40,490 nucleotides of DNA. Source: an uncultured Gammaproteobacteria bacterium. Lineage in GTDB: Bacteria; Patescibacteriota; Patescibacteriia; Magasanikbacterales; GWA2-37-8. The translations under genes and the position numbers were made by a program. Of this stretch, positions 4,408 through 34,830 are shown piece after piece (the first letter of the stretch is position 1; every line of letters begins with the position of its first letter). The stretch covers positions 27,888-68,377 of the forward strand of contig CAZHTA010000004.1 in assembly GCA_964535515.1 (NCBI GenBank), in the 5' to 3' direction. The notes below the pieces were generated by a model. That model was not told the origin of the DNA and made no database searches. It saw only the letters and a list, made by a program, of their open reading frames with translations.

Positions 4408-6441
4408 ATGGAAGAAAATATCTTGGAAAATCAAGCCGCACCAGCGGTGATACCAACCGACGCCGATATAAACTATTTCGGGTTGGTTAACTATCGTAAT
4501 CAAAATCGTAAGTTTGGTATTAAGACTGATGATCGCCGTCGACATATGTATGTTGTCGGTAAAACCGGTATGGGGAAAACGACGATTTTGGAGAATATGG
4601 TGTTAAATGACATCTACGCCGGACACGGGGTTGGTTTGGTTGATCCGCACGGTGATTTTGCTGAAAAGATTATTGACTATATCCCAGCTAATCGTATCAA
4701 CGATGTCGTATATTTCAATCCCGCGGATATTGATTTCCCGATTGGTTTTAATATTTTAGAAACTGTAAAGGCGGAGCACAAACATTTGGTGGCTTCTGGT
4801 TTGATGGGGGTATTTAAAAAGATCTGGCCAGATGTGTGGAGTTCACGTATGGAATATATCTTGAACAACACCCTTTTGGCATTGTTAGATTATCCTGGTA
4901 CAACTTTGCTTGGTATTAATCGTTTATTAGCCGATGCTGACTATCGTAAGCGCGTCGTGCATAATTTGAAAGATCCAGTAGTAAAAGCTTTTTGGCAAAA
5001 TGAGTTTGCGGCTTACAATGATAAATATCGCCAAGAAGCGGTAGCGCCAATTCAAAACAAAATTGGTCAGTTTTTGTCTGCTTCGGTCATCCGTAATATC
5101 GTCGCTCAAGTAAAATCACGAATTAACATTCGTGAGATTATGGATAGTAAAAAGATTTTTATCATGAACTTGTCTAAAGGAAGAATTGGTGAGGATAACT
5201 CGCGTCTTTTGGGTGGTATGCTTATCACCAAGATTCAGTTGGCAGCCATGGAACGCGTAGACACTCCAGAGAAGGATCGTAAGGATTTCTTTTTGTACGT
5301 TGATGAGTTTCAGAACTTTGCTACTGAGAGTTTTGCCAACATTTTGTCAGAAGCACGTAAATATCGCTTGGATTTGACCATGGCTCATCAGTATATGGAG
5401 CAACTAGAAGAGGAAGTCTTGGCGGCTGTTATCGGTAACGTAGGGAGTATTATCACTTTTCGGGTTGGTTCTACTGATGCAGAGATTTTGGCTAAGGAGT
5501 TTATTCCAACTTTTATTGAAGAAGACTTGATTAATTTACCAAAGTTTCATATTTACCTTAAACTAATGATCGACGGCATTGCTTCGCGACCATTTTCAGC
5601 TTTGACTTTGCCACCGATTGCTCAGACTACCCATAGTGAAGAAAAAGTAATTAAGGTTTCGCGTGAACGTTATGCTGTACCACGTGAAAATATTGAAGAC
5701 AAGATCGCGCGTTGGAGTGGCATGGTGATTATTCCAGAAGATGAAGCGAGCGAATTAGAAGTAGACGAAGAAGAGGAAATGTTTGAGAAACAGGTAAAGA
5801 AAGAAGAAAAGAAAGTGGTGGAAAAGCCAAAAGAAGAAGTGAGATCTGAGTCTAAGCCTGAACCAGCTGTTGTGGTGGAGGATACCGTAAAGCCAGAAGT
5901 TGTACAGGATTTACCAAAGACAGAACCAGCGCGGAATGTTTCAGAACCAATCGTGCAACCGCAGCCAGTTGTTAGACCGGTACAGTCTAGTTCGGCACCT
6001 CAAGTGAATCGGACATCCAATAATATTTCAGGGGGCAATCGAAATGGTGGTCAGGGTAGTAGCCAGAATTTTCAGTCTTCTGGTAAAAAGAAAAAAAAGA
6101 AACACCATAGTAGTCCAGGTGGTGGCACCGCGGTTTCTTTGGTGGATACAAGTCAAAAAGGTATTTCTCTAAATAGTTTAAGTCAAGAAAGAAACGGGGG
6201 AGGACAACAACGTGATCAGCAACGTTCGCAACAGCAGAGCGTGCAGTCTCCGGTAAAGGCACAAGAAGAAAGGAGAGAGGTTCCTCAAGTTCCAGTTGTT
6301 CAAAAACCACTTGGACCAGAGACGATCGGCTTGTTGCCAAAGGAGCAACATCAGAATCCGCCGGTTGGAGTTAAATCTCAATCACCCCATCAGCCAGTAA
6401 CGATTTTGCCTGGTCAGGTTAACAAGGTAGAAGAGAATTAA
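4408..6441 (+). CDS. VirD4/TraG/TraD-like P-loop ATPase (type IV coupling-protein family) with a C-terminal tail of about 240 aa that is low-complexity and rich in E/K/P/Q/S
   Basis: Walker A GKTGMGKTT and Walker B FFLYVDEFQNF. An AHQYMEQL...FRVG region resembles the TraG/TraD C-terminal motif. The tail contains KKKKKKHH, encoded by an A8 run at 6091-6098. Confidence 0.55.
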   Translation: MEENILENQAAPAVIPTDADINYFGLVNYRNQNRKFGIKTDDRRRHMYVVGKTGMGKTTILENMVLNDIYAGHGVGLVDPHGDFAEKIIDYIPANRINDVVYFNPADIDFPIGFNILETVKAEHKHLVASGLMGVFKKIWPDVWSSRMEYILNNTLLALLDYPGTTLLGINRLLADADYRKRVVHNLKDPVVKAFWQNEFAAYNDKYRQEAVAPIQNKIGQFLSASVIRNIVAQVKSRINIREIMDSKKIFIMNLSKGRIGEDNSRLLGGMLITKIQLAAMERVDTPEKDRKDFFLYVDEFQNFATESFANILSEARKYRLDLTMAHQYMEQLEEEVLAAVIGNVGSIITFRVGSTDAEILAKEFIPTFIEEDLINLPKFHIYLKLMIDGIASRPFSALTLPPIAQTTHSEEKVIKVSRERYAVPRENIEDKIARWSGMVIIPEDEASELEVDEEEEMFEKQVKKEEKKVVEKPKEEVRSESKPEPAVVVEDTVKPEVVQDLPKTEPARNVSEPIVQPQPVVRPVQSSSAPQVNRTSNNISGGNRNGGQGSSQNFQSSGKKKKKKHHSSPGGGTAVSLVDTSQKGISLNSLSQERNGGGQQRDQQRSQQQSVQSPVKAQEERREVPQVPVVQKPLGPETIGLLPKEQHQNPPVGVKSQSPHQPVTILPGQVNKVEEN

Positions 6442-6452
6442 TATTTAAATTA

Positions 6453-6481
6453 CCCGCCCACAATTTAGGGGGCGGGTTTTT
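6453..6481 (+). terminator. Rho-independent terminator
   Basis: Stem cccgccc (6453-6459) pairs with gggcggg (6470-6476), followed by a T-tract. Confidence 0.6.
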
Positions 6482-6509
6482 GACTTTTTTGGCTAAAATT
6501 TGGTAAGAT
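6480..6509 (+). promoter_or_regulatory. Candidate sigma70-type promoter of the swivel-paralog operon: TTGACT, 18-nt spacer, then TGgTAAGAT (extended -10)
   Basis: ttgact at 6480-6485, tgg at 6501-6503 and taagat at 6504-6509. The ATG at 6519 lies only about 10 nt past the -10, so the mRNA would be near-leaderless. Confidence 0.35.
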
Positions 6510-6518
6510 ATACCCTAT

Positions 6519-7973
6519 ATGAAACAAGACTATATCCTCAAACAGCGCAAAAAGAACATGTATATTTTCCCTAATGTTTTTGTGATTGGGCGGGTTTTTA
6601 CGGGCAGTTTGAACAAAATATTGAATGGTAAGAATTTTGGAGAAACAATGTGTATTTACAAGGACGATATGATGTATTGGTATGCTTCGGATAGTATGGT
6701 AAAAGCGGCGGCGCAAGAATTTTTTAAGAAATTAAAAAAGAATTCAAATTTTGTTTCTTCGTCTATTCGTATTTTTTCTAAACGTAGTAATTTTTTTCTG
6801 TCTTGGGTAAAAAAAGTTAGTAAGAGGGATTTATCAAAAATGACCAACAAGGAGCTGGATGTTTTTTGGGATAAGTATTTAGAGCTCTATGAGTCTAGCT
6901 ATATCTATAGTGAAGCATTGGTAATTTGTTTTGAAGAATACCTTTCTGGTCTTTTGTCTTCGTATTTAAAGAAATTAGTAAAAAGTGATACTGAAGCATC
7001 TCGGGTTCAAAATGTTCTTGCTTCGCCTTTGGAAAAATCATTTGTGAAAAGAGAAGAAGATGATTTGTTGAATTTGGCGTTAAAGATTAAAAACGGCAAG
7101 GTGAAGGATGTAGAATTGGCGTTAGAAAAACACGTGGAGAAGTATCAATGGGTGCCGTTTGATTATGGTATGTATATTTGGGATAAAAAATATTTTAAAA
7201 AGATTTTGCAAGGGATGTTAAAAAATGCAGATTTAGAGAATCGGATTGTGGCTAGTAAGAAATATTTGAAGTATTTGTCTTTGGAACAGTTGCGTTTAGA
7301 AAAGGAATTAAAGATTGACAAGCAATACAAAAAATATTTTATGGCGATGCGCCAGACGGGGTATTTGTTAGATTACAAAAAGGAAATTTTTACCCAGATA
7401 CATTTTTATGCAGAGAAGGTATTGGCGGAGACAGGTAAACGTTTGGGTGTAAAAAGAGATCTGGTGCAATATTATTTGCCAGGAGAAATCAAGACTGCCT
7501 TAAAGGAAGGTAAAGTGGTTGGCAAGAAAATATTAGAAGCGAGACAAAAACATTGTTATGTTCGTTGGTTTGATAATAGTATCGAAGCAGTGATAGACAA
7601 GCCGGATAGTTTGTTGGCTAAATTTTTATTAAAAGAAGATCCGACTTCAGCTAAATTTGAGGGTATTATTGCTTCGGCGGGAAAATGTATTGGAAAGGTA
7701 AAGATTTTACATAGTGCGTTAGAAGTAGACAAGGTGAAATTGGGTGATATTTTAGTTGCACCAATGACTAGTCCAGATTATGTTCCGGCGATGCGTTTGG
7801 CTGGGGCAATTATTACTGATGAGGGCGGGGTGATGTGTCACGCGGCGATTGTGTCGCGTGAATTAGGTATCCCGTGTGTGGTTGGTACGAAAAATGCCAC
7901 AAAGTTTTTACATGACGGTGACGAAGTGGAAGTGGATGCTAATCATAATTCGGTGAGGATAATTCGCAGATAG
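6519..7973 (+). CDS. Swivel paralog A: divergent N-terminal module followed by a C-terminal PEP-utilizing-enzyme mobile (phosphohistidine) domain
   Basis: C-terminus DEGGVMCHAAIVSRELGIPCVVGT matches the PEP-utilizers His signature. The N-terminal half contains the family motif HVEKYQW. Confidence 0.7.
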   Translation: MKQDYILKQRKKNMYIFPNVFVIGRVFTGSLNKILNGKNFGETMCIYKDDMMYWYASDSMVKAAAQEFFKKLKKNSNFVSSSIRIFSKRSNFFLSWVKKVSKRDLSKMTNKELDVFWDKYLELYESSYIYSEALVICFEEYLSGLLSSYLKKLVKSDTEASRVQNVLASPLEKSFVKREEDDLLNLALKIKNGKVKDVELALEKHVEKYQWVPFDYGMYIWDKKYFKKILQGMLKNADLENRIVASKKYLKYLSLEQLRLEKELKIDKQYKKYFMAMRQTGYLLDYKKEIFTQIHFYAEKVLAETGKRLGVKRDLVQYYLPGEIKTALKEGKVVGKKILEARQKHCYVRWFDNSIEAVIDKPDSLLAKFLLKEDPTSAKFEGIIASAGKCIGKVKILHSALEVDKVKLGDILVAPMTSPDYVPAMRLAGAIITDEGGVMCHAAIVSRELGIPCVVGTKNATKFLHDGDEVEVDANHNSVRIIRR

Positions 7974-7974
7974 C

Positions 7975-9411
7975 ATGTTAAATAGCAGCGATTCAAAACA
8001 TATTCGTGAAACTAATTGGTATCGCCAAGGTGGGGCGATTAATTTGTTTTATTGTTTTAGTCCGTTTCAATCTATTCGCGAAACCATTGGTTATGATGGT
8101 TGTATTATGTATCAAGAGGATGCTGTTAATACTGCTTTTTTTGAACGAGACAGAGAGGATAAGTTAGCACTTAAATTTATCCGAGCAAGCGGGGAAGACA
8201 AATATTTGGTGGACAGATGGATAAGCGTTTGGCGTATACGCATATTAAAGTTAAATAAGTTTTTAGATAAAAGTTTTTCTAAACCATTGGAAACGTGGTC
8301 TGATGCGGAGTTGGTTAATTTTTTCCATCGTTATGATCATTTGGCTTTAAGTCATTGGAAGAAGGGTGTTTTGTGTGAATGGACTGACCCTAATGGCTGG
8401 AATATAGTAAAGACGGAGGCTTTAAAATATTGCCCTAATCTTAGTGATGAAGATATTAATCTGTTAACATCACCAGAAAAGTTAACTGTAGTGCAGAAAG
8501 AATTAGTTGATCGGTTGGTTTTAATGAAAAAACAAAAGCAGGGTTTAAGTATTGAGCGCGAGCTTAAGAAACATGTTAGTAAATATTTTTGGATTCGCAA
8601 TAATTGGGCGTTTGTTTATGATTTAAAAGAAAAAGATTTTCAAAAGGTTATTAACAAAGAAATGTTAAAGTTGGAGAAAGTTGAAAGACAAGTGAAAGAA
8701 ATTAATGAATATATACGTGAGATTAAGAAAAAGAAAAAGATTTTAATCAAGAAAAAATCAGTACCACGTAAAGTACAAAATGTTTTTTACTTTTTTACTC
8801 AATTAACCGATTGGCGCGATGAGAGGAAAAAATTTGCTGCTTGTTTGCCAAATCATTATTTATATAAAATATTGAAAGTATTGGCGAAGAGAAATAATAT
8901 TTCTGAGGAGTTGGTTGGTTTATTAATATGGTTTGAAATTAGTGGTTGGAAATTATCTGTAAAAACAATAGATAATTTAAAAAGACGAGGGCAGGGCTGG
9001 ATCTATTATTGTCGTAAAAATAAACAATGCCAACAAGTTTATGGTAGTGAGGCAAAAAAGATTTTTAATGATTTGGTTAAGGCGTTAGATAAAGGTGAAT
9101 TGCGAGGGTTAATAGCAAACAAGGGTGTTGTGATTGGTAAAGCGAAGATTGTGGAAGTACAAGCTGATTTTAGTAAAGTAAAAAAAGGGGATATTATTGT
9201 TGCTAACATGACGCGCCCAGATTATGTACCGATTATGAAATTGGCAGGTGGAATAATTACCAATGAGGGAGGGATTACTTGTCACGCGGCAATTGTTAGT
9301 CGTGAGTTAAATATTCCTTGTATAATTGGGACACAGGTGGCTACGGATGTTTTAAAAGACGGTGATGTTATAGAAGTTGATGCGGATAATGGTGTAATTA
9401 GAAAAAAATAA
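7975..9411 (+). CDS. Swivel paralog B: N-terminal module plus PEP-utilizer phosphohistidine domain
   Basis: NEGGITCHAAIVSRELNIPCIIGT and KHVSKYFW. Starts 1 nt after paralog A. Confidence 0.7.
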   Translation: MLNSSDSKHIRETNWYRQGGAINLFYCFSPFQSIRETIGYDGCIMYQEDAVNTAFFERDREDKLALKFIRASGEDKYLVDRWISVWRIRILKLNKFLDKSFSKPLETWSDAELVNFFHRYDHLALSHWKKGVLCEWTDPNGWNIVKTEALKYCPNLSDEDINLLTSPEKLTVVQKELVDRLVLMKKQKQGLSIERELKKHVSKYFWIRNNWAFVYDLKEKDFQKVINKEMLKLEKVERQVKEINEYIREIKKKKKILIKKKSVPRKVQNVFYFFTQLTDWRDERKKFAACLPNHYLYKILKVLAKRNNISEELVGLLIWFEISGWKLSVKTIDNLKRRGQGWIYYCRKNKQCQQVYGSEAKKIFNDLVKALDKGELRGLIANKGVVIGKAKIVEVQADFSKVKKGDIIVANMTRPDYVPIMKLAGGIITNEGGITCHAAIVSRELNIPCIIGTQVATDVLKDGDVIEVDADNGVIRKK

Positions 9412-9414
9412 TTT

Positions 9415-10890
9415 ATGCAAGATATTAATAGGTTGACTGAGAAAGATTGGTATTTTCAAGGGTTCAATGGTGTCCCAGCTCTTTTGTATGGTCCCGCTTG
9501 GTCTATGGCGCGTGATATGCCAAAATTTTTAGGTTTTGGCTATTCTGTTTGTGTTGAATATTTCACTAAGGATGTTTGTTATTATCTATATTCTTGGGAT
9601 GATTTATATAAAATTCATGATGAATTATTAAAACGTGTTAAACGCGACAAAAATTATTTGCGTTATTTATCAAAATCAGATGAATGTTTATGTAAAGAAG
9701 TGATTAAAGAATATAAAATTTTAGGTGGGAAAGATTGGTGCAGTGCTTCCATAAAAGAATTATTTTCGGGTTGGCGTAAAGCCAATGATTTATATGCGCA
9801 TCTTTTAGGGGTTTCGCATATTGTAGAAGGGTTTAGTTTAACCACAGAAGATCGAATTAGAGCTTTGATTAATGAAGTTTTTCCTAATGATTCCGGAGCT
9901 TTGTCGTTGCTCACTACTCCCAAGACGCATTCTTTTATGTCTATTGAGCACTATGAGTTATGTTTAATAGCTCATGGTGTTAAACGTATTAAATTGGGTA
10001 AGTGTACTGTTGAAAATATTTTGGTTAATAAGGTGATAAATAAAAAAATATGTCTTCATCAGGAGAAATATTATTGGAAATTAAATGGTTATACGTCGGC
10101 TAAGTTTCTAGACGACAAGTATTTTGCCAAAGAAATATGTGGTTTGTTAAACAAGAAAGTTAATTTTGAAAAATTTATTCATGATTTTGAAAATTTGTCC
10201 AAAAGATTAGATGGAAAAAAGAAACTTCTTAAAAAAGTGAAAAATCAAGAATTACTTGATTTATTAAAAATTTCTGATGCGTTGTTTGTGATCCACGATC
10301 GTCGTAAAGAGCATATGACGCAATCAATTACTTATTTGGAATTAATTTTAAGTGAGATTGCTAAGCGATTTAAAATACCTTTATCTGATTTGCACTATAT
10401 TCGTCCGTCAGAGTTAGAAAAGTTACCTAAGATTTGGTCGGAGTTAAAAAAGAGGAAAGAACATAGCATATACATTTTATATCCAGAAGGAGAGATGCCA
10501 GTATTAACTGGTTTAAAAGCAAAAAAATATTTTGAAAAAATTGAAAAGAATAAAAAATTAGATAAGATTTCGGAGATTAAAGGGAATGGTGCGTCGCCAG
10601 GAAAAGTAAGAGGCGTAGTTAAGGTGTGCCGCGGTGAAAAAGAATTAGGTAAAATGAAAGAAGGAGATATTCTCGTGGCGTGTATGACACAGCCTGAATT
10701 TTTACCGGCTTTGAGAAAAGCTAAGGCCGTCATTACTGATGAGGGTGGTTTGACTTGTCATGCTGCGATAGTGGCAAGGGAGTTAGGAATTCCTTGTGTG
10801 ATTGGAACAAAAGTAGCTACTAAAGTTTTAAAAGATGGTGATATGGTAGAAGTTGATGCGGATAATGGTATAATTAGGAGAATAAAATAG
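9415..10890 (+). CDS. Swivel paralog C: N-terminal module plus PEP-utilizer phosphohistidine domain
   Basis: DEGGLTCHAAIVARELGIPCVIGT and QEKYYW. Confidence 0.7.
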   Translation: MQDINRLTEKDWYFQGFNGVPALLYGPAWSMARDMPKFLGFGYSVCVEYFTKDVCYYLYSWDDLYKIHDELLKRVKRDKNYLRYLSKSDECLCKEVIKEYKILGGKDWCSASIKELFSGWRKANDLYAHLLGVSHIVEGFSLTTEDRIRALINEVFPNDSGALSLLTTPKTHSFMSIEHYELCLIAHGVKRIKLGKCTVENILVNKVINKKICLHQEKYYWKLNGYTSAKFLDDKYFAKEICGLLNKKVNFEKFIHDFENLSKRLDGKKKLLKKVKNQELLDLLKISDALFVIHDRRKEHMTQSITYLELILSEIAKRFKIPLSDLHYIRPSELEKLPKIWSELKKRKEHSIYILYPEGEMPVLTGLKAKKYFEKIEKNKKLDKISEIKGNGASPGKVRGVVKVCRGEKELGKMKEGDILVACMTQPEFLPALRKAKAVITDEGGLTCHAAIVARELGIPCVIGTKVATKVLKDGDMVEVDADNGIIRRIK

Positions 10891-10960
10891 TTCTTTAAAA
10901 CACAAGCACCCGACCGAAGTCGAGTGCGTTGTGCACGTTGTTGGGGCCTGCTCCAATGAG

Positions 10961-11452
10961 CTAGGCCAGTCGCGTCGCGGTACCGTCGCCGAGGTGGAGC
11001 TCGTACACGGCGCTGCTCGCAGCCTCGAGCTTGAGGCTCTCGAGCACCGGACGTCCGGCCACGAGGACGACGTCCGGGCTGCCCTCGGCGAGGATCAGCA
11101 TGCCGTACGTTTCCCGCAGGTGCATGAGCGTGGCTTCGCGGGACGGCATTCGGAACCGGTCCAACGTCGTCTGCGCGTTGCAGGCGAGCGCGATGTTCCA
11201 CCCTCCGTTGCCGTTGGGGACGCCCGAGCTGGGGTCACCCAGCATGGGATCGTACCACTCGATCTCCTGGAAGATGTCCAGCGCCTCGGCCGTGTCGATG
11301 TGACGCCGGGCGGTCCCGCAGAAGACTCGACGCTTGTCGGGGAGGGGCAGGTGCGGTACGAGCCGTTCGATCTCGCTTCTTCCTTTGCTCGTGAGACCGG
11401 GGTCCGCACCGGGACCCTTCGAACCGTGGGTGATCAATAGGACTCGCGCCAT
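10961..11452 (-). CDS. High-GC foreign ORF of 163 aa on the opposite strand, with a weak histidine-phosphatase-like pattern (THG in place of RHG). Function unknown.
   Basis: Open frame with very high GC3 across the whole island and a strong SD (GGAGAAcgagagATG), unlike native genes. Protein begins MARVLLITHGSKGPGADPGLTSKGRSEIERL and contains VFCGTARRHIDTAEAL. The listed 198-aa ORF starts at an upstream in-frame codon; the SD supports the MARV start. Confidence 0.4.
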   Translation of the reverse strand: MARVLLITHGSKGPGADPGLTSKGRSEIERLVPHLPLPDKRRVFCGTARRHIDTAEALDIFQEIEWYDPMLGDPSSGVPNGNGGWNIALACNAQTTLDRFRMPSREATLMHLRETYGMLILAEGSPDVVLVAGRPVLESLKLEAASSAVYELHLGDGTATRLA

Positions 11453-11605
11453 CTCTCGTTCTCCTATGGTTGTGCGACACGCTGTCGCTTGGTCCCAAAT
11501 AAACGTGCAGTTTGTTTCAGATAGTGCTCGGATTTGGTTAAATCCAGGCAAAATCATGGTACCAAACGTTTCAGTATAGTATATTTTCGCTGTTTTGTCA
11601 ATATT

Positions 11606-13087
11606 ATGTACAAATCACCTCAATTTAAATCAAATAAACTAGAACTTACGGTTAGTCGTCCGTATGTTCCTTTGTGTGCTAACTATTTTTTCCAAAGCTA
11701 CAGTAATCCAGAATATTTTAAGAAGTTTTATAAAATTAACTTTTTTACTCGTTTATTAGCAATTAATGCGGATTTTTATTATGGCCTAGAAGCAAAAGAT
11801 TTTGGCTATGTTCTTTTTGGACAAGCGGCAAAGTATGGTAGTCATAGTAAAATTAAAAAGAAAAATCTTAAGGGTATTTTGCACATTTTTGATCGGACCT
11901 ATAAATTTGGTGATTCGTTATTGGAATTTACTTTGCAAGTTAAGAAAACAGATTTTTCTGAATATTCAAAGAAGCAATTATTAGAGGTGTTTGGAAAATT
12001 TTCGAAAGATTATGTTGTTTTTTGTACTGCTTTATTGGGTATGAATATGCAGTATGTTGTCGAAGATGGTTTGCGTGAGTTTCTACGAAGTGATAAAAAC
12101 GCAGAAGAGGAGCTTGCGATTTTGACTTTTCCTGATAAACAAAATGTTCTTGTTCAAGAACTAATGGACTTATTGCGTTTACGAATTAAATTAGAAAAAG
12201 TTGGTGTTAAGAATTTGGAAAAATGTAAGACCAAGGAGCTTGGCTTACTAAAGAAGCATGTTGATAAGTACGGTTGGATCAATGCTCGTGGTGCCATTAA
12301 TGAAGGATGGACGGTAAAAGAGGTTTTTGATCGGGCGATGGCAGAAAAGAATTGTGCTAAACGTTTGGTTGAGATAGTTAAGAATCAAAAAGAGCATCAA
12401 AAACAAGTTCGAGATATATTTAAAACAAAAAAACCTAATGCGGAAATTAGGGATTTAATAAAAATCGCCAAAGAGCTGGTATATTTTCGCACCTACCGTA
12501 CAGATTATCTTAATTGGATGTTTTTTAATATTCGTCCTTTATTAAATGCGTTGGCAGGTAAGATGGGTATTAGTTTTGAGGATATTATATATTATCTACC
12601 AAAAGAAATCATGACTAAGAAAAAAGTGTCTGAAAAAGAGGTTGTTCGTCGCAAGGAAGGTTACGCGATATTGTTAGCTAAACCTTATGAGGTATTATTC
12701 TCCTCTGATCCTAAGAAAATATTGGAATGGAAAAAGAAACATACTGAGGTATTAGGTGGCAATGTTACGGAAGTTAAGGGTATGTCTGCATACAAAGGTA
12801 TTGTTCGTGGTAAGGCTGTGTTGGTATTGAAAAAGGCTGATATGGTAAAGGTTAAGTCGGGGGATGTTTTAATCACTTTTATGACTACGCCAGATATGGT
12901 ATCGGTTATGCAGAAAGCAATAGCGTTTGTTACTGATGAGGGTGGTATTACATGCCATGCGGCGATTGTAGCACGGGAGATGAAGAGACCGTGTGTAACA
13001 GGGACCAAAATTGCTACTAAGGTTTTTAAAGATGGCGATGAAGTAGAAGTGGATGCGAATACTGGTGTAGTGAAAATTATTAAATAA
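11606..13087 (+). CDS. Swivel paralog D: N-terminal module plus PEP-utilizer phosphohistidine domain
   Basis: DEGGITCHAAIVAREMKRPCVTGT and KHVDKYGW. The listed ORF starts at a TTG (11534) inside the island; the first ATG is at 11606 (MYKSPQFK). Confidence 0.65.
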   Translation: MYKSPQFKSNKLELTVSRPYVPLCANYFFQSYSNPEYFKKFYKINFFTRLLAINADFYYGLEAKDFGYVLFGQAAKYGSHSKIKKKNLKGILHIFDRTYKFGDSLLEFTLQVKKTDFSEYSKKQLLEVFGKFSKDYVVFCTALLGMNMQYVVEDGLREFLRSDKNAEEELAILTFPDKQNVLVQELMDLLRLRIKLEKVGVKNLEKCKTKELGLLKKHVDKYGWINARGAINEGWTVKEVFDRAMAEKNCAKRLVEIVKNQKEHQKQVRDIFKTKKPNAEIRDLIKIAKELVYFRTYRTDYLNWMFFNIRPLLNALAGKMGISFEDIIYYLPKEIMTKKKVSEKEVVRRKEGYAILLAKPYEVLFSSDPKKILEWKKKHTEVLGGNVTEVKGMSAYKGIVRGKAVLVLKKADMVKVKSGDVLITFMTTPDMVSVMQKAIAFVTDEGGITCHAAIVAREMKRPCVTGTKIATKVFKDGDEVEVDANTGVVKIIK

Positions 13088-13117
13088 TTTGTTTATATAT
13101 TTTTAACTTATAAAAAT

Positions 13118-14200
13118 ATGGAAAGAGGACCAAGTTTAAGGCCAGAGGATATGCTAGTTGGCAATGATGGGGTGGATCAGAAAGCGCGAGGTGTAATTGA
13201 ATCACGTGATAGCGCCGTAGCTCATAATATTGAGCGTGGGGAAGGCTTATCATCTTCGCGTGTTGTTTTGGAGTTTATGCGTCATGGTAAAAAAGAAAAA
13301 GCGCCAGGCAAAGATGATCGTGATATACGCATTGTTCCGGAAGCGCGTGTGGCAGCAACGGAAAAAGGTAAAAAATTAGGAGCGCAAGCTGAGGTGTCGG
13401 TTGTTTATGCTAGTCCGCGTAACCGTACTCAGGAATCTGCTGGCCGAGTTGCTTTGGGTAATCAATCAGAAATTACTGCGGATATGAGCTTAGAGGATAT
13501 TATGGTTAAAACAATGGAGCATAATGCTATTTTAATGCCTGATCAGTTAGAACGTTTGCGCGAGCTGTTGTCTCATCCAATGGAAGAATTAAATGCTGAA
13601 GAAAAGAAGGAGCTAAAACTTTTGTCGAGTAAAGGTAAAAAAATCATGGTTGATGAACGTTTGGATTTTACTGATGAAACAGAGGAGGGTCTAAAAGCTT
13701 TTATGGCTGGTCGTTATTTAGATCATGCTGTAAAGGATAGTGATCAGTTGGCAATTGCAAAGCATGATACTAAATTATCTACCTATACTCGTTCGGCTGG
13801 TAAGATCGCGGAGATTGTTTCTAAATATATTCAGGTGGGTAAAAATTTTAACAAAAGAGTAAGTGTTGATCCAGAGAAATATAAAAAATTCGGTAATCAA
13901 TTAGAAAGATATTTTGGTTCACACCAAGGTGTTGTAGAATGTTTTTTGTTGAAAGCAATCGAGAAAATAAAAGGTGTAAAAGAGCGTGATGAGATTTTGG
14001 CTTTGATGCCAGCAGGTTTTAAAGAGTTACAAGGTGTAAGGATTGGCATTGAGAACAATGGCAAAGGAGAACAGGTGATTGTTTTAGATGCCGAAGTTGA
14101 AGGAAGAAAGATTAATTTAGAATTAACCCCAGAGATTTTAATGGGTATGGTTAGTGATAGAGATGTGCTGGATGAACAATGTAAGAGTAGTGTGGAGTAA
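13118..14200 (+). CDS. Histidine phosphatase superfamily (PGAM/SixA-like, RHG motif) protein
   Basis: VLEFMRHGKKE (RHG), then VPEAR..A.EKGKKLG, VVYASPRNRTQESA (SP..R..Q.A) and a distal GSHQGVVE resembling the second catalytic His region. Confidence 0.55.
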   Translation: MERGPSLRPEDMLVGNDGVDQKARGVIESRDSAVAHNIERGEGLSSSRVVLEFMRHGKKEKAPGKDDRDIRIVPEARVAATEKGKKLGAQAEVSVVYASPRNRTQESAGRVALGNQSEITADMSLEDIMVKTMEHNAILMPDQLERLRELLSHPMEELNAEEKKELKLLSSKGKKIMVDERLDFTDETEEGLKAFMAGRYLDHAVKDSDQLAIAKHDTKLSTYTRSAGKIAEIVSKYIQVGKNFNKRVSVDPEKYKKFGNQLERYFGSHQGVVECFLLKAIEKIKGVKERDEILALMPAGFKELQGVRIGIENNGKGEQVIVLDAEVEGRKINLELTPEILMGMVSDRDVLDEQCKSSVE

Positions 14201-14210
14201 TATTGTTGTT

Positions 14211-15281
14211 ATGTCTATCGTTCCTGATAAATTTTTAAAAGGAGAGTGTTGGCTGAAAGATTGGGCGGGTCAGTGGGATCTTTTTATTTGTTTTTATTCA
14301 GGAGAAGATTATACCACCTTACTTAAAAAGTGGTTGGGTATTAATTTTGATAAATGTCTTTTTATTTATCACGATGGGTTTGTGGAGTGTTATTTAAATA
14401 AAAGATGTTTAGATATTTTGGGTAGAGAGATTAACGCGAGGGTTAAAGAGGATGTTTTGTGGATTGATAGGAATTGTAAAGATCTTAAAAAGAATACACA
14501 AATTTTCCTAAAATATTTTGCTGAGCATAAAAACGATTTGGTTGCGGAAGAGACATTGAAGAAGTTTTTGCAGTTGGTTAGCAATTGTTTTGCTGCGTAT
14601 ATTTCTAATAAATTAGCATTTGATTATTTGTCAGCAGATATATTAAAGAAAAAATGGAATGTGATGGAATCGGCACGTGTATACTCAGAATCGGTTTATA
14701 CGGCGTGTATAGAGTTTGTTCACAATTGGGGTAAACAAATGGCGAAAAAAGTTAAGATACCAAAGGATCTCTTTCTTTGTTGTTCGTTAAATGAAATTGA
14801 AACTTATTATCGATCGGGTAGATTACCAAGTGTTAGCGAGTTAAAGCGACGGTATTCGTTTAATGTGATACTTTCACAGAATGGTCAGAGTTTTTTATTG
14901 ACTGGCTCAGAGGCTAAGGCTGTTGAGAAAAAGATTATTAGTTCATTTGGCGACAGTAAAACCATTAAAGGCACCTGTGCCTATCCGGGGAAAGTAACGG
15001 GGCGGGTTAGAATTGTTTTTGATCCTAAAAAGATAAAAGATTTTAAAGATGGGGATATCTTGGTAACACCGATGACGCGACCGGAGTATCTTTCTCTAGT
15101 TAAAAAATCCGCTGGTTTTATTACTGATGCTGGCGGTATGCTTTCTCACGCCGCTATTACAGCGCGCGAGTTAAAGAAGCCGTGCGTGGTAGGTACCCAA
15201 GTGGCTACGCGTTTGTTAAAAAATGGAGATGAGGTGGAAGTGGATGCCAACAAAGGGATAGTTAATGTGATTAAAAGATAA
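14211..15281 (+). CDS. Swivel paralog E: shorter N-terminal module plus PEP-utilizer phosphohistidine domain
   Basis: DAGGMLSHAAITARELKKPCVVGT (Ser replaces the usual Cys before the His). First non-overlapping ATG is at 14211; the listed ORF begins at 14154. Confidence 0.6.
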   Translation: MSIVPDKFLKGECWLKDWAGQWDLFICFYSGEDYTTLLKKWLGINFDKCLFIYHDGFVECYLNKRCLDILGREINARVKEDVLWIDRNCKDLKKNTQIFLKYFAEHKNDLVAEETLKKFLQLVSNCFAAYISNKLAFDYLSADILKKKWNVMESARVYSESVYTACIEFVHNWGKQMAKKVKIPKDLFLCCSLNEIETYYRSGRLPSVSELKRRYSFNVILSQNGQSFLLTGSEAKAVEKKIISSFGDSKTIKGTCAYPGKVTGRVRIVFDPKKIKDFKDGDILVTPMTRPEYLSLVKKSAGFITDAGGMLSHAAITARELKKPCVVGTQVATRLLKNGDEVEVDANKGIVNVIKR

Positions 15282-15288
15282 TGATTTT

Positions 15289-16839
15289 ATGAAGGTGCTA
15301 AAAACTTTTCCTTTGGCTTTGACCAAAAAAACTGCTAGTCAGTTTAATAAGGCGTTTCATGCCAAGTTATTTACTTTGTTTGCTTCTTCGATGAGTGAAC
15401 TAATGCAGTTGGCTAAGGATTTTCCTGTGCATTATAAACATTGTTTGTGTTTTATTAAAGATGATTTAGGCCAGTGGTTTTTGGGCGCAGATAGCATCGA
15501 AAGAGTTAGGCGGTATATCATAAAAAAAGCTGATGAGGATTTTTCTCAGATAAATAAATATTATTTACGTTGGCAGAAAGACTGGGGTAAGTTTTTAATA
15601 TTAAACAGAAAATTAATTAGTTCAGATTTTAGTTCTTTGACTGACAAGCGGTTGTATAAAGTTTTTGATGAGTTTTATGATCTATATTTAAAAGTAGGTG
15701 GTGTGGCATATATTAGTGATGCCTTTATGTCCTCTGGGGAAAAAGATTGGCTGCAAGAGGTTATAAACCAAGAATTAAAACGCATTTATAAAGATATTGA
15801 AAAAGTAAAAAGGGTGGCGGCGGATTTGATTTCGCCAGTTCATCTTTCTTTTGTTTTGGAAGAAGAACTTGAATTATTAAAACTAGCTCCGGCGTTTATT
15901 AATCTTACTGGTAAATTGGTGGGTTTTAATAAGTTGTCCGCTAAACAACTAGCGCAGCTGGAACGTCATGCTGACAAATATTATTGGATGAATAATAACT
16001 ACTATAACGTAGAATTTTACGATGCATTTTCAGTATATACACATCTGGTCAATCTTTTAGATGGTTTGCAACAAGAAAAACGTAGCCTTAGTGATTTTTT
16101 GGCGGAGAGACAGCGCGAATTAAAGGAAAATAAAACGAGGCGTGAGGGGTTGATTAGTGATATTAAGCTACCAAAAAAGATTAAGAGCTTAATTCGGGTA
16201 GCTAATTTGTTTAGCAAGTGGAAAGACGTTCGGAAAAGTGGTGTGTATCGTGGCATGGCAATTTTTGATAAATTTTTGGGCGAGATAGCAATGCGTACTG
16301 GTTATACAAAAAAGGAAATTACTTTTTTAGTTTTTCCGGAGTTCAAGGATTTATTGTTAAATAGAAAAGATTTTCGGTTGGTTATAAAAGATCGTCAAAA
16401 GCAAATATTTTTTGTGGTGCGTCCGCACGACTATCTTTTGGTTAGCGGTCAAAAGGCGGATAAATATTTTGCTTGTTTGTCCGAAGGACTCAATGCTGAG
16501 ATGAAAGAATTCAAAGGAGCAGTGGCCTCCAAAGGAATCGCGCGCGGGGTGGTGCGGATGATAAGGAAAACAGAAGAGATGAAAGACTTTAAAAAAGGTG
16601 AAATTTTAGTTACCAACAATACTACACCAGAGTTTGTTCCAATCATGAAAAAGGCCGCAGCGATCATTACTGAACAAGGTGGTATAACCTCACATGCTGC
16701 TGTAGTTTCGCGTGAATTGCGTAAGCCGTGTATTATTGGTGTTAAAGGTATTACAACCATTTTAAAAACAGGGGTAGAGGTTGAAGTAGATGCTAATCAT
16801 GGTATAATTAAGATTATTAATAAAAGTTTAAAGAAATAA
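15289..16839 (+). CDS. Swivel paralog F: N-terminal module plus PEP-utilizer phosphohistidine domain
   Basis: EQGGITSHAAVVSRELRKPCIIGV and ERHADKYYW. Confidence 0.7.
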   Translation: MKVLKTFPLALTKKTASQFNKAFHAKLFTLFASSMSELMQLAKDFPVHYKHCLCFIKDDLGQWFLGADSIERVRRYIIKKADEDFSQINKYYLRWQKDWGKFLILNRKLISSDFSSLTDKRLYKVFDEFYDLYLKVGGVAYISDAFMSSGEKDWLQEVINQELKRIYKDIEKVKRVAADLISPVHLSFVLEEELELLKLAPAFINLTGKLVGFNKLSAKQLAQLERHADKYYWMNNNYYNVEFYDAFSVYTHLVNLLDGLQQEKRSLSDFLAERQRELKENKTRREGLISDIKLPKKIKSLIRVANLFSKWKDVRKSGVYRGMAIFDKFLGEIAMRTGYTKKEITFLVFPEFKDLLLNRKDFRLVIKDRQKQIFFVVRPHDYLLVSGQKADKYFACLSEGLNAEMKEFKGAVASKGIARGVVRMIRKTEEMKDFKKGEILVTNNTTPEFVPIMKKAAAIITEQGGITSHAAVVSRELRKPCIIGVKGITTILKTGVEVEVDANHGIIKIINKSLKK

Positions 16840-16840
16840 T

Positions 16841-17827
16841 ATGCCAAAAGTTTCTCATATTAAGTTTTTTAAGAATATCTCTAAAAGTGATGTTGATATT
16901 GCTGGTGGTAAGGGTGCGTCTTTAGGTGAGATGACACAAGCCAAGATTCCAGTACCAAATGGTTTTGTGGTTTTAGCCGCAGCCTTTGATCGTTTTTTAG
17001 AAGAGACACAATTAAAAGAGGAAATTGTGGCACGGCTAAAGGAAGTTAACCCAGAAGATACTAATTCGGTTGATCGTATTAGTGCGGTTATTCGTGATGC
17101 GATTCATGATCGGTCAATGCCTAAAGATTTGCAGAAAGAAATTTTAGGAGCATTTACTAAGTTAGATGCTAAATTTGTGGCTGTACGTTCATCGGCTACA
17201 GCAGAGGACTCATCTGTTGCTAGCTGGGCAGGGGAGCTGGAGAGTTATTTAAATACGAGTAAAAAAGATTTGATTGAACGGGTGCGTCGTTGTTGGTCGT
17301 CGTTGTTTACTCCGCGTGCTATTTTTTATCGTCATGAAAAAGGGTTAATTGACCATTATGTCTCAGTAGCGGTAGTAGTACAAAAAATGGTGCAGTCAGA
17401 AATTTCTGGCATTGCTTTTACTGTTCATCCAGTAACGGAAGATTATGACCAGATGATTATTGAAGCGGGGTATGGTTTGGGTGAAGCGATTGTCTCTGGA
17501 CAAATTACACCTGATAGCTATGTGATTAGCAAGGGTAGTATGGAGATTATGGATACTTATGTTAGTTCACAAGCTCGTCAGTTAATTCGTAAGAAATCTG
17601 CTAAGAGCAAAGGGGATGAAGAAAACACTTCAAATGAGTGGGTAAATTTAGGTAAAAAAGGTGAAAAACAAAAGGTCGACAACAAAACGGTCTTGGCCCT
17701 GGCCAAAGTATTTAAACGGATTGAGGACCATTACAAGTTTCCGTGTGATATCGAATGGGCTATGGAAAAGAAAAAAATATATATTACCCAAAGTCGTCCG
17801 ATTACTACTTTAAAGAAGAAAAAGTAG
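16841..17827 (+). CDS. Stand-alone PEP synthase / pyruvate phosphate dikinase N-terminal nucleotide-binding (ATP-grasp, PPDK_N-like) domain protein
   Basis: DVDIAGGKGASLGEM, VAVRSSATAEDSSVASWAGELESY, ISGIAFTVHPVT and ITQSRPIT are motifs of the PEP synthase/PPDK/rifampin-phosphotransferase ATP-binding domain. There is no swivel or PEP-binding domain in this ORF. It starts 1 nt after paralog F. Confidence 0.75.
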   Translation: MPKVSHIKFFKNISKSDVDIAGGKGASLGEMTQAKIPVPNGFVVLAAAFDRFLEETQLKEEIVARLKEVNPEDTNSVDRISAVIRDAIHDRSMPKDLQKEILGAFTKLDAKFVAVRSSATAEDSSVASWAGELESYLNTSKKDLIERVRRCWSSLFTPRAIFYRHEKGLIDHYVSVAVVVQKMVQSEISGIAFTVHPVTEDYDQMIIEAGYGLGEAIVSGQITPDSYVISKGSMEIMDTYVSSQARQLIRKKSAKSKGDEENTSNEWVNLGKKGEKQKVDNKTVLALAKVFKRIEDHYKFPCDIEWAMEKKKIYITQSRPITTLKKKK

Positions 17828-19009: not shown

Positions 19010-19149
19010 GTCAACAATTAACTTGGGCAATGTAGTAAGGGCCTAAAAGCCAACAGGACGTTCCCAGTATTTCCAGGCTGGATTAAACCAGTCGGAGGTC
19101 GAATTTATCTATCTCAAACAACATTTTGGGAACAAAACAATCAAAATAT

Positions 19150-19479
19150 ATGGCTTTTGGTACTGACAGACAAATGTTTGATGTTGACTTGACCTGTGCT
19201 AAGTGCGGGTCTCACATCGCTCAGTTGCCTTTTCAACCATCTGGTGATCGACCGGTTTACTGTTCTGACTGCAACCGTGCTTTCCGCCAGAGTCGTCCTG
19301 ATGATCGTGGTAGCCGTGGTGGTAGTTTTGGTGGACGCTCAGATGGCCCTCGCCAGATGTACAGCGTTAACCTAAGCTGCGCTTCCTGCGGAACTGCGAT
19401 TACCCAACTACCGTTCCAGCCAACTGGTGATAAGCCAGTTTACTGCCGGGACTGTATGCAGGCTCGTCGTAATGGTTAA
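19150..19479 (+). CDS. Small tandem-duplicated zinc-ribbon protein: two CxxC-x17-CxxC units joined by an RGG-like linker
   Basis: Repeat 1 is DLTCAKCGSHIAQLPFQPSGDRPVYCSDC. Repeat 2 is NLSCASCGTAITQLPFQPTGDKPVYCRDC. The linker is RGSRGGSFGGRSDG. G+C is visibly higher than in neighbouring genes. The listed ORF starts at a TTG (19126); the first ATG is at 19150. Confidence 0.55.
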   Translation: MAFGTDRQMFDVDLTCAKCGSHIAQLPFQPSGDRPVYCSDCNRAFRQSRPDDRGSRGGSFGGRSDGPRQMYSVNLSCASCGTAITQLPFQPTGDKPVYCRDCMQARRNG

Positions 19480-27686: not shown

Positions 27687-28037
27687 ATGCGTCACCAATC
27701 GAATAAAGTCACATTGGATCGCAAAGCTGCACCACGTCGTGCTCTTTTAGCTAATTTAGTGGAGAGTTTGGTTCTATACGAAAAAATTACCACTACTTTA
27801 GCAAAAGCTAAAGCTTTACGTCCAAGAGCAGAAAAGTTGATTACTATTGCTAAAGGTAATACCTTGGCTTCACGTCGTCAAATTTTGAAAGTTCTGTATA
27901 CCAAAAATGCCGTTAAGAAATTAATGGAAGTTTTGGGCCCACGTTATGCTGAACGAAAAGGTGGTTATACCCGTATCATTAAGCTCGGCGTTCGTAAGGG
28001 CGACGGTGCGGAAGAGGCGGTTATTGAATTAGTATAA
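27687..28037 (+). CDS. rplQ: 50S ribosomal protein L17
   Basis: MRHQSNKVTLDRKAAPRRALLANLVESLV. Confidence 0.9.
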   Translation: MRHQSNKVTLDRKAAPRRALLANLVESLVLYEKITTTLAKAKALRPRAEKLITIAKGNTLASRRQILKVLYTKNAVKKLMEVLGPRYAERKGGYTRIIKLGVRKGDGAEEAVIELV

Positions 28038-33468: not shown

Positions 33469-34830
33469 ATGGAACAGGTGAATATTAAAAGATACAAAGA
33501 TTCTTTTAAGTGGCAGTTTGGTGCTTATCCTTTTTTTACTTCGGTTTTTACTAAATGCGCTGATTTGAAAATTAAAAAGAAACATCATCTTTGTTTTAAT
33601 GAATATATTAGTAATTTTGAAAATGATTCAGTAACAGCGTTTATTCCATGGGAAGTTTTTGAAACACCTGGTAGGAAGATTATTAAAAAAATACTAGCAG
33701 GGGACAAGTATTATTATAACGAAATAAAAAGAACACATAGTGCAGTTAAAAAAGCTATTGCAGCATGTTTGTTGGCGCGGTCTAAAAATGTTAATGAATT
33801 GGGTAGGTGGTGGAGATTAACTCAGGATGCGCTATCGGATGTTAGTCGTGTATTATATTCATTTGATTTTACTTTTGATTTATTTTTAAATGAATTAAGA
33901 GCGAAGGATCAGGATTTGTTTGTGGTGTTGTTAGAGAATATAAAAACAAAAGAAAAATCTTTTCTTGAGGAAGCCTCGGCTAAGTTGTTAAAATTAAAAT
34001 CAGAAAGCAGTGATTTTAAAAAGGTCTATATTAAATTTGTTAAAGAGTTTGGGTGGTTTCAAAATAGTTATAGAGGAGTTTTTAAATTCGATGAGACTTG
34101 GTTGAAACAGTATTTAAAAAATATTTTGCAGCCAAATAAAAAGGACAAAGCAAAGGCGCCGGGCGTTGTTCCGTCTAAATACAAGTTATTAGTTAAGTTG
34201 GCGAAAGAAACGATAGTGTTTAGAGATGACAAGAAAAAATTATTACTAGTCGCAGCAGATGTGATGGATAGTTGGCTAAGGAGAGTTTGCAAAGAACACG
34301 GTTGGTCTTTTGAAGCAATGCGTTGGTTAACAGTAGATGAGATATTGGATGTAATAGAAAATGGTAATAAAAAGAATTTGGTGTTGGCAGAAAAATATTA
34401 CAAAGCCAAGCGACGCATTGGTGTTATGGTCAGTACAGGTTATTTAGATATTAGTAAAAAAGATTGGGACAAAATATATTTGTTGTACTTTACTTCTAAG
34501 AGTGGTTTGGTAAAAGGATTGGCAGCTAACAAAGGTGTCTATAGAGGAACGGTGCGAGTAATTTTAGATCCAGTGAAGGATGCAAAAAAGTTTTATCCAG
34601 GAGATGTTTTAGTCGCCTCGATGACTCGTCCGGAGTATATTAGTCTAATGAGTAAGGCGGGTGCTTTTGTGACTGATGAAGGTGGAATATCTTGTCATGC
34701 TGCTATTGTGGCTAGAGAAATGGGGAAGCCGTGTATTATTGGCACCAGAAATGCTACTAAGATGTTAAAGGATGGTGATTTTGTGGAGGTGGATGCTAAT
34801 ATTGGAATTATTAAAGTCGTTAAAAATTAA
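33469..34830 (+). CDS. Swivel paralog G: N-terminal module plus PEP-utilizer phosphohistidine domain
   Basis: DEGGISCHAAIVAREMGKPCIIGT. The N-terminal half shares the family pattern (VKEFGWFQNSY). Confidence 0.7.
   Translation: MEQVNIKRYKDSFKWQFGAYPFFTSVFTKCADLKIKKKHHLCFNEYISNFENDSVTAFIPWEVFETPGRKIIKKILAGDKYYYNEIKRTHSAVKKAIAACLLARSKNVNELGRWWRLTQDALSDVSRVLYSFDFTFDLFLNELRAKDQDLFVVLLENIKTKEKSFLEEASAKLLKLKSESSDFKKVYIKFVKEFGWFQNSYRGVFKFDETWLKQYLKNILQPNKKDKAKAPGVVPSKYKLLVKLAKETIVFRDDKKKLLLVAADVMDSWLRRVCKEHGWSFEAMRWLTVDEILDVIENGNKKNLVLAEKYYKAKRRIGVMVSTGYLDISKKDWDKIYLLYFTSKSGLVKGLAANKGVYRGTVRVILDPVKDAKKFYPGDVLVASMTRPEYISLMSKAGAFVTDEGGISCHAAIVAREMGKPCIIGTRNATKMLKDGDFVEVDANIGIIKVVKN

Follow-up and report, generated by a model that had tools for sequence, protein, structure and literature searches.

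In the two-component small-molecule dikinases HpeHI, CreHI and PpsAB, an ATP-grasp subunit phosphorylates the swivel histidine of a substrate-binding subunit (PMC12167813); in rifampin phosphotransferase the corresponding domains are fused. We describe here a related locus in a 40,490-nt stretch of DNA (hereafter the window: positions 27,888 to 68,377 of contig CAZHTA010000004.1, assembly GCA_964535515.1) that is assigned to the Magasanikbacterales of the Patescibacteriota, part of the Candidate Phyla Radiation (CPR). In it, a single stand-alone ATP-grasp gene follows an array of swivel genes, and the array is interrupted by an island of high G+C content carrying one minus-strand gene. The product of this gene, 163 amino acids (aa) long, has the histidine-phosphatase fold and belongs to a new branch of it, restricted to Patescibacteria, whose nearest known relative is SixA and which has the motif Thr-His-Gly (THG) in place of Arg-His-Gly (RHG). 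We are confident that the THG gene is a real, recurrent member of this family rather than a chimera or a one-off xenolog, and in every copy we found it is richer in G+C than the DNA around it.

Like HpeHI, CreHI and PpsAB, the window encodes a stand-alone ATP-grasp protein and separate proteins that combine a substrate domain with a histidine-bearing swivel (PMC12167813). Unlike them, it pairs one ATP-grasp with six to eight diverged swivels and with two proteins of phosphatase fold, and a phosphatase partner is not mentioned in the parts of that report consulted. The array resembles a two-component dikinase recast in a 'one charger, many heads' form. At the sequence level its ATP-grasp (PPDK_N) and C-terminal swivel domains match those of phosphoenolpyruvate (PEP) synthase and of the fused rifampin phosphotransferase, and a structural model of swivel paralog C (predicted local distance difference test score 75, moderate confidence) aligns with rifampin phosphotransferase over 197 residues, past the swivel. 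The island protein itself is only 22% identical to E. coli SixA (PDB 1ujb/1ujc), from which it differs in having THG for RHG and, as it seems, an arginine (in a GRP motif) for the second core histidine; also unlike SixA, it has no Pfam or NCBIfam membership, is confined to Patescibacteria and is encoded in a GC-rich cassette on the opposite strand. A literature search returned no account of a THG family, of a phosphatase partner for such dikinases, or of conserved GC-rich genes in CPR bacteria.

A preliminary description of the window, made by inspection of the letters, had remarked on a loose SixA-like pattern with THG instead of RHG. That resemblance is borne out, and THG proves to be a trait of the family and not a change peculiar to the window gene. 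The island protein has the alpha/beta fold of branch 1 of the histidine phosphatase superfamily and almost certainly folds as SixA does. The suggested kinship with PF00300 (His_Phos_1) holds as a weak match (E = 0.005), although the score of 17.0 bits lies under the gathering cut-off of 21.7; no NCBIfam family was matched at E ≤ 10, and sequence searches of the PDB reached histidine phosphatases at E ≥ 0.02. Exact-sequence look-ups of the island protein, in versions of 163 and 198 aa, and of paralog C had no match, which places the source genome outside the collection searched. A word-seeded search with the single protein against 5.8 billion clusters gave no homologue. When 1.84 billion representatives were scanned exhaustively with phmmer (threshold E ≤ 1e-3), 70 proteins emerged, the best at E = 3e-15 and 40% identity; most of those listed are 141-210 aa long and many align end to end. 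Among approximately 15 billion proteins, the closest relatives are at most 41% identical to the island protein. A profile search yielded 33 family members, none with a precomputed Pfam domain, and those with names come from Doudnabacteria and Paceibacterota; all relatives whose source or context can be read are AT-rich Patescibacteria.

The family signature runs THGxK ... PG.T..G ... CGTGxRH ... GxPxS ... GRP ... SAAVY. In an alignment of 43 sequences, five of which match His_Phos_1 weakly (E ≤ 0.01), H9, P18, G24, G46, R50 and G72 are invariant and K12, G133 and R134 nearly so. H9, invariant in all 43, occupies the position of the nucleophilic histidine and aligns with SixA His8, and R50 aligns with SixA Arg55, the second core arginine. 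The Arg of RHG is replaced by Thr in the window protein, in the family consensus and in 22 of the 22 rows listed, within a column that is less than 90% conserved. Judged by motif pattern, a 'VAGRP' strand plus loop appears to take the place of the SixA 'ISHLP' segment that contains His108; if this match is right, R134 replaces that histidine. Many members also share a C-terminal tail, ...G(D/E)xGAGxxE(V/L), which could be a docking peptide and which the window protein does not have. PADLOC assigned no defence family to the island protein, paralog C, the PPDK_N protein or the RHG phosphatase encoded farther along the array.

The compositional break that the preliminary description placed between swivel paralogs C (9415-10890) and D (11606-13087) is sharp at both edges in a sliding-window calculation. 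In 200-nt windows spanning 10900-11499 the G+C fraction is 0.63-0.68, against 0.26-0.47 on both sides; the change takes place within 20-30 nt, at approximately 10900 and 11490. Overall, positions 10900-11470 have 0.655 G+C compared with 0.370 for the remainder of the window, where no 500-nt segment exceeds 0.47. Background windows of the gene's size average 0.37 (sd 0.038, maximum 0.53); the gene itself, at 0.67, has z = 7.8, and none of the 780 windows compared equals it. All six frames had been called open, and all six do contain ORFs (open reading frames) of 81-198 aa, but only two of these cover the entire island. The minus-strand frame, which had been singled out for its very high G+C at third codon positions (GC3) and its Shine-Dalgarno (SD) sequence, is confirmed as the coding frame: its GC1/GC2/GC3 values of 0.67/0.49/0.85 follow the order GC3 > GC1 > GC2 that is typical of a genuine gene, no other frame of the six does so, and a GGAG lies 8 nt 5' of its ATG. 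The antisense ORF at 10931-11440 was rejected as coding, since GC1 falls below GC2 there (the in-phase plus frame gives 0.49/0.68/0.85).

The gene is a complete, self-contained monocistronic unit on the minus strand, with promoter, leader, SD, a 163-codon ORF and terminator (Table 1). The sigma-70-type promoter, TTGACA-17-TATACT, matches the consensus at 11 of 12 positions and adjoins the start of paralog D, which points the other way. Between it and the SD is a leader of about 110 nt holding two palindromes, GCGACAcgcTGTCGC and GGATTTggttAAATCC; both had been noted before, each with coordinates one base off those given in Table 1. GCGACAcgcTGTCGC may act as an operator or, in RNA, as a hairpin. 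The two were considered as regulatory sites and set aside: each is a hairpin when the leader is folded in silico, yet the leader is no more stable than its shuffles (z = -1.2), and 6+6 palindromes arise by chance at about this frequency. The unit ends 33 nt past the stop codon in the terminator hairpin, which faces the 3' end of paralog C and folds with -30.5 kcal/mol (z = -4.0). The unit does split the swivel operon, as had been claimed: it converges on C and diverges from D, cutting the array into two transcription blocks. The native genes of the window essentially lack an SD, again as had been stated; GGAG, GAGG or AGGA was found upstream of only two of 39 other genes in the window and of none of the ribosomal-protein genes. 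This is reminiscent of SD-poor lineages such as the Bacteroidetes, whose ribosomes sequester the anti-SD (PMC7797042), and the many Parcubacteria without an anti-SD motif (PMC9297842); SD use at the island gene is predicted from its motif.

Two readings of the island at the RNA level were considered. Neither the island nor any other part of the window matches an Rfam family, and a structured-RNA or dual-function element was rejected on that ground. An excludon-like arrangement, with transcription reading through into the array as antisense, is weakened by the strong hairpin terminators in which most copies of the gene end, and also by an antisense strand whose structure is not significantly in excess (p = 0.12). 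Several of the homologues' terminators look bidirectional by eye, with an A-run before and a T-run after, and would be common to the convergent gene.

The case for a recurrent family comes from other genomes. A degenerate DNA pattern for VTHGxKx4[ND]Px[ML]T, blind to codon choice, was scanned over a metagenome collection. Of the 25 loci that it picked out, 23 contain true members; with look-ups of the best matches this amounts to 26 distinct copies from independent assemblies (individual loci are cited below as L001 and so on). Five lie on contigs too short for neighbours and two in other contexts (L036 and L039). In all of the 19 with recognisable neighbours the gene is beside or inside a group of swivel and/or PPDK_N genes and on the strand opposite to them (p ~4e-6 under random orientation), even though the copies are mutually only about 30% identical. 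In three genomes of Doudnabacteria and Paceibacterota, for instance, the homologue sits between two PEP-utilizers genes, or between a PEP-utilizers gene and PPDK_N, on the opposite strand. At L014, from an independent sample, the junction is that of the window: a swivel gene is followed at its 3' end by the motif AAAACACAAGC, then by a GC hairpin and a GC-rich gene, the protein of which is nevertheless just 32% identical to that of the window. The expression signals recur as well, with GGAG- or AGGAGG-type motifs a few nt before the start in most homologues and a hairpin terminator followed by a T-run in 21 of 24.

The two copies in other contexts differ in setting. L036 (37-3111) has two tandem THG paralogs, the second of which has lost the motif (ITYC), beside an insertion sequence (IS)-like gene for an rve integrase and a ParE toxin gene; the L039 copy has ftsZ on one side and nrdR on the other and shares their strand. 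Presence is also patchy among the closest relatives of the window. The genome with 93% identity in alanyl-tRNA synthetase (AlaRS) has a VirD4-like gene and PPDK_N but neither swivel genes nor a THG gene, and in the genome with 88% AlaRS identity (82% for PPDK_N) the swivels are only 27-35% identical to those of the window and the part examined has no THG gene. A C-D junction without the island could therefore be sought in both but found in neither as an orthologous junction, one having no array and the other unrelated paralogs. At the equivalent position of a related Magasanikbacteria metagenome-assembled genome (MAG), between the second and third swivels of L001 (3084-3689), lies an unrelated plus-strand gene of 201 aa with no Pfam match.

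The high G+C content is likewise shared by the family. The difference between gene and flanks is positive at every locus, ranging from 0.08 to 0.30 (mean 0.17), and the flanks of all copies fall between 0.31 and 0.45; the three Doudnabacteria and Paceibacterota copies are GC islands too, at 0.56-0.65 against 0.38-0.42. At 18 of 19 loci the THG gene is the GC-richest gene-sized window, and only two of 3150 background windows reach the gene's value. In each of 16 loci compared, G+C is higher at every codon position (on average by 0.15 for GC1, 0.10 for GC2 and 0.25 for GC3), and the proteins are richer in Gly and Pro (slightly so in Ala and Arg) and poorer in Lys, Asn, Phe, Tyr and Ile. Across copies GC3 ranges from 0.31 to 0.85, and the extreme copies, those of the window, L014 and L006 (0.84-0.85), share only 32-40% identity. 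Since synonymous sites should reach equilibrium long before proteins have diverged by 60-70%, an old import still ameliorating towards its host would not account for these three. We infer that high G+C is a trait of the family in the array setting, maintained rather than inherited from a recent donor. We know of no described counterpart to so persistent a compositional anomaly.

Translational optimisation was rejected as the cause: ribosomal-protein genes of the window favour GCT, CGT, CCA, GTT, ACT, TCT and TTA, the opposite of the GCC/GCG, CCC, GTC, ACG, AGC and CTC favoured by the island gene, in which CTC makes up 57% of Leu codons as against 2-4% in native genes. The messenger RNA (mRNA) offers another lead. 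THG mRNAs fold more stably than their synonymous shuffles (mean z = -2.0, negative in 16 of 16 genes) and more so than 16 neighbouring gene segments (mean z = -0.66; one-sided Mann-Whitney p = 0.0014), the antisense strand of the THG genes has no significant structure excess (p = 0.12), and per nucleotide the THG mRNA is about twice as stable as its neighbours. That the G+C content is maintained by selection at the mRNA level is a tentative proposal, to which we give somewhat less than an even chance.

Taken together, we think it reasonably likely that the THG gene is an autonomous and recurrent accessory of the multi-swivel dikinase arrays of Patescibacteria, a SixA-like means of resetting or braking them whose G+C richness is actively maintained. 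In such a scheme, the ATP-grasp protein would charge the swivel histidine of each paralog, and the SixA-like protein would take the swivel phosphoryl group onto its own His9 and release phosphate, by which the array would be reset or braked. A promoter of its own on the opposite strand would allow the level of the island protein to be set independently of the array, and selection on the mRNA, for stable structure, resistance to decay or slow decoding, would keep the gene GC-rich against an AT-biased background. We propose that the SD is needed because such a structured, GC-rich mRNA could not start translation as the native genes do, from AT-rich regions with no SD. As to the substrate, we lean slightly towards phosphohistidine of the swivels as what the island protein acts upon.

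Several observations weigh against this scheme. The Arg of RHG is a Thr and the second core His is apparently an Arg, so that a phospho-acceptor, a binder or a pseudo-enzyme is conceivable. Between L012 and L032 the four flanking genes are 83-86% identical at the amino acid level while the THG proteins are only 48% identical, with synonymous sites saturated, and the breakpoints fall at the edges of the cassette, about 165 nt 5' of the start codon and about 19 nt beyond the stop. One copy stands beside an IS and a ParE toxin (L036) and close relatives of the window do not have the gene; like the L012/L032 contrast, these fit horizontal exchange. Outside arrays, GC3 is near-native in the two copies known (0.31 in L036, 0.37 in L039); it follows that GC-richness is not intrinsic to the protein, and these two cases hint that it goes with the opposite-strand setting within an array. 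Finally, the excess of mRNA structure is modest and comes from 16 genes with 40 shuffles each.

The same gene could have another role, as a phosphoryl acceptor or sink or as a catalytically dead swivel binder, two of the four core residues being changed. THG for RHG, GRP at the expected position of the second His, and scores below the Pfam and NCBIfam cut-offs all speak for this; we nevertheless regard it as rather unlikely, as no family member departs from the nucleophilic His or from one core Arg, the charges that are missing could come from K12 (invariant) and R134 (nearly so), and the conserved pocket residues favour chemistry over mere binding. The other alternatives concern the origin of the composition. 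The island shares with horizontally acquired islets a sharp break in G+C and codon usage, a promoter, SD and terminator of its own, and patchy presence; unlike them, its anomaly recurs in homologues of about 30% identity across several CPR lineages, at a common location and on a common strand, and no compositionally matching donor is known. Among the marks of a foreign gene, then, the deviating composition is there, and close homologues in a matching donor and flanking repeats or mobility genes are not: no direct repeats bracket the island, and no integrase or transposase lies near it in the window. A mobile cassette from an unsampled, GC-richer reservoir, repeatedly exchanged and replaced as a promoter-to-terminator unit at one functional site, with its copies at various stages of decay towards AT, would explain the divergent L012/L032 block bounded by the promoter region and the terminator, the greater divergence of the gene than of its flank between L021 and L011 (82% against 91% identity), the IS with its rve integrase and the ParE toxin next to the L036 copies, the spread in GC3, the consensus expression signals carried by the gene and its patchiness among close Magasanikbacteria. 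We consider it unlikely all the same: none of the 26 distinct copies, those from the composition-blind scan included, is in a high-GC context (all flanks ≤0.45 G+C), searches for the exact island 45-mer and for the family motif found no viral contigs, tblastn against plasmids and phages gave no match, and a cassette circulating among AT-rich genomes alone should itself turn AT-rich. A single recent acquisition from a high-GC donor, for example an actinobacterium, is far less probable still. The codons CTC, CCC, ACG, GCC and GAC, the SD and the GC3 of 0.85 do resemble a genome of 65-70% G+C, and the relative with 93% AlaRS identity has no copy; against this, the best match to the 163-aa product is 40-41% identical and from AT-rich Patescibacteria DNA rather than of the Actinobacteria-like kind envisaged in the preliminary description, every context-resolved relative is an AT-rich patescibacterium, the family holds the corresponding cluster and strand in other CPR lineages, and L014 has a window-like junction. 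The xenologous insertion from a high-GC donor proposed there thus finds no backing, nor does the assembly artefact offered alongside it. Judging the contig as assembled sequence against other assemblies, we put the chance of a chimera or mis-join close to nil: the change in composition is abrupt, but it has the form of an insertion-like block with native sequence on either side and an intact gene with its signals, and the family is recovered in the corresponding context and strand in at least 19 independent assemblies (NCBI, JGI, ENA and Logan).

A process acting locally on one transcription unit, such as repair at head-on conflicts or GC-biased recombination, might also raise its G+C content by biased mutation or gene conversion. 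The gene is alone on the minus strand in a co-oriented region of about 38 kb with strongly positive GC skew, all three codon positions are raised and not synonymous sites alone, and the gene outpaces its flanks in several pairs, with a ratio of nonsynonymous to synonymous substitution (dN/dS) of about 0.6 in the closest pair (0.18 in another). Head-on genes evolve faster according to one report (PMC5585990), which is disputed (PMC8510543), and GC-biased conversion has been proposed in bacteria (PMC4450053). Yet the reported effects of conversion on bacterial GC3 are small next to increases of 0.25 to 0.54, and two other minus-strand genes of the window are not GC-rich. We know of no GC-biased spectrum for head-on conflicts, and find this explanation improbable. 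Less probable again is that the cassette is deliberately kept in a foreign 'dialect' (GC codons, a consensus sigma-70 promoter, a strong SD and a strong terminator, all of them foreign to the other genes of these genomes), whether for another translational regime, for expression in a GC-rich host after DNA transfer or, more mildly, through an undescribed gene-specific mutation or conversion process that drives G+C. The DNA-transfer version could cite the VirD4/TrwB-like coupling ATPase that is encoded beside the array both in the window and in two Magasanikbacteria related to it. In this version, modelled on the T-DNA of Agrobacterium, a delivered SixA-like enzyme might possibly strip phosphohistidine from signalling or phosphotransferase-system proteins of the host.

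What is new here is, in the protein, a branch of a known fold with an altered motif and, in the arrays, an elaborated form of an enzyme type already known. With its THG...R...GRP motif, this previously unannotated, CPR-specific branch of the histidine phosphatases is genetically tied to phosphohistidine swivels and offers a testable candidate phosphohistidine phosphatase for dikinase intermediates. The large and fast-changing arrays themselves, one ATP-grasp with many swivels, may have substrates that concern antibiotics, host metabolites or competition. For genome analysis, the equation of atypical composition with recent transfer does not predict copies of about 30% identity that stay GC-rich at synonymous sites in AT-rich genomes, and compositional detectors of horizontal gene transfer and MAG-cleaning tools would flag the THG gene as contamination and possibly discard it. 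It also provides a natural system in which to ask what holds the composition of one bacterial gene away from that of its genome.

Table 1. Features of the swivel array and the GC-rich island (positions in the window; nt, nucleotides).
Feature	Position	Strand	Score or remark
Swivel paralogs A, B and C, each with a variable N-domain (~400 aa) and a PEP-utilizers phosphohistidine domain; convergent with the island gene	6519-10890	+	
Intrinsic terminator of the island gene: 9-bp GC-rich stem with UUCG loop (10927-10906), then U-rich tail	10896-10927	-	terminator scan
Compositional island, ~65% G+C in a 37% G+C genome	10900-11490	no strand	z = 7.8; 0/780 windows
Coding sequence of the island gene: 163-aa SixA-like protein, histidine-phosphatase fold ('THG' family); stop codon 10961-10963	10961-11452	-	
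Shine-Dalgarno GGAG, 8 nt 5' of ATG	11461-11464	-	
Perfect 6+6 palindrome GCGACAcgcTGTCGC in the 5' leader	11474-11488	no strand	not significant alone
Inverted repeat GGATTTggttAAATCC in the 5' leader	11530-11545	no strand	not significant alone
Sigma-70-type promoter TTGACA-17-TATACT, back to back with the paralog D start	11573-11601	-	11/12 matches
Swivel paralog D, divergent from the island gene	11606-13087	+	
RHG histidine phosphatase (His_Phos_1), 360 aa, native composition	13118-14200	+	E = 8.4e-6; GC3 = 0.29
Swivel paralogs E and F	14154-16839	+	
Stand-alone ATP-grasp (PPDK_N), presumed phosphoryl donor to all swivel domains	16841-17827	+	E = 1e-95

The six tandem swivel genes (6519-16839) encode proteins of approximately 375-516 aa, with swivel domains recognised at E = 1e-23 to 1e-28 and an invariant phosphohistidine motif, TCHAAIVARE. 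Two further swivel genes, at 33469-34830 and 35467-36561, bring the total in the window to eight, served by a single stand-alone PPDK_N. Thirty-seven of 40 tabulated genes (from 58 mechanical ORFs of at least 100 aa) are on the plus strand, which has a strongly positive GC skew there, and the island gene is the sole minus-strand gene within about 38 kb of nearly all co-oriented genes. The RHG phosphatase has the canonical motif and lies in the sense orientation of the array, its 3' end running 47 nt into paralog E, for which a GTG start is predicted; it has homologues in the arrays of L001, L007 and L024.

The best genomic matches of paralog C are in Magasanikbacteria MAGs, and the AlaRS of the window is 93%, 88% and approximately 80% identical to those of the closest metagenome genomes and 73-78% identical to those of named Magasanikbacteria. 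The array is an accessory, fast-changing region, hypervariable between close relatives (L041 1-7000 and L044 1-7300 compared with 4408-17827 of the window). The variation extends to the cassette: in the comparison of L012 (2006-2730) with L032 (6245-7088), the block from promoter to stop is highly divergent and the terminator just beyond it is conserved. A gene for a VirD4/TrwB-like coupling ATPase adjoins the array or PPDK_N in three Magasanikbacteria (4408-6441 in the window, 3385-5943 in L002 and 2944-4806 in L041) and its product also matches the PADLOC model mad8 (E = 1e-15). A second, lower peak of G+C in the window (19126-19479; 0.50, with GC2 of 0.55) corresponds to a treble-clef zinc-finger gene, zf_Tbcl_2, which is kept beside PPDK_N and MnmA in L002, L041 and L044 and whose G+C content appears to be driven by amino acid composition.

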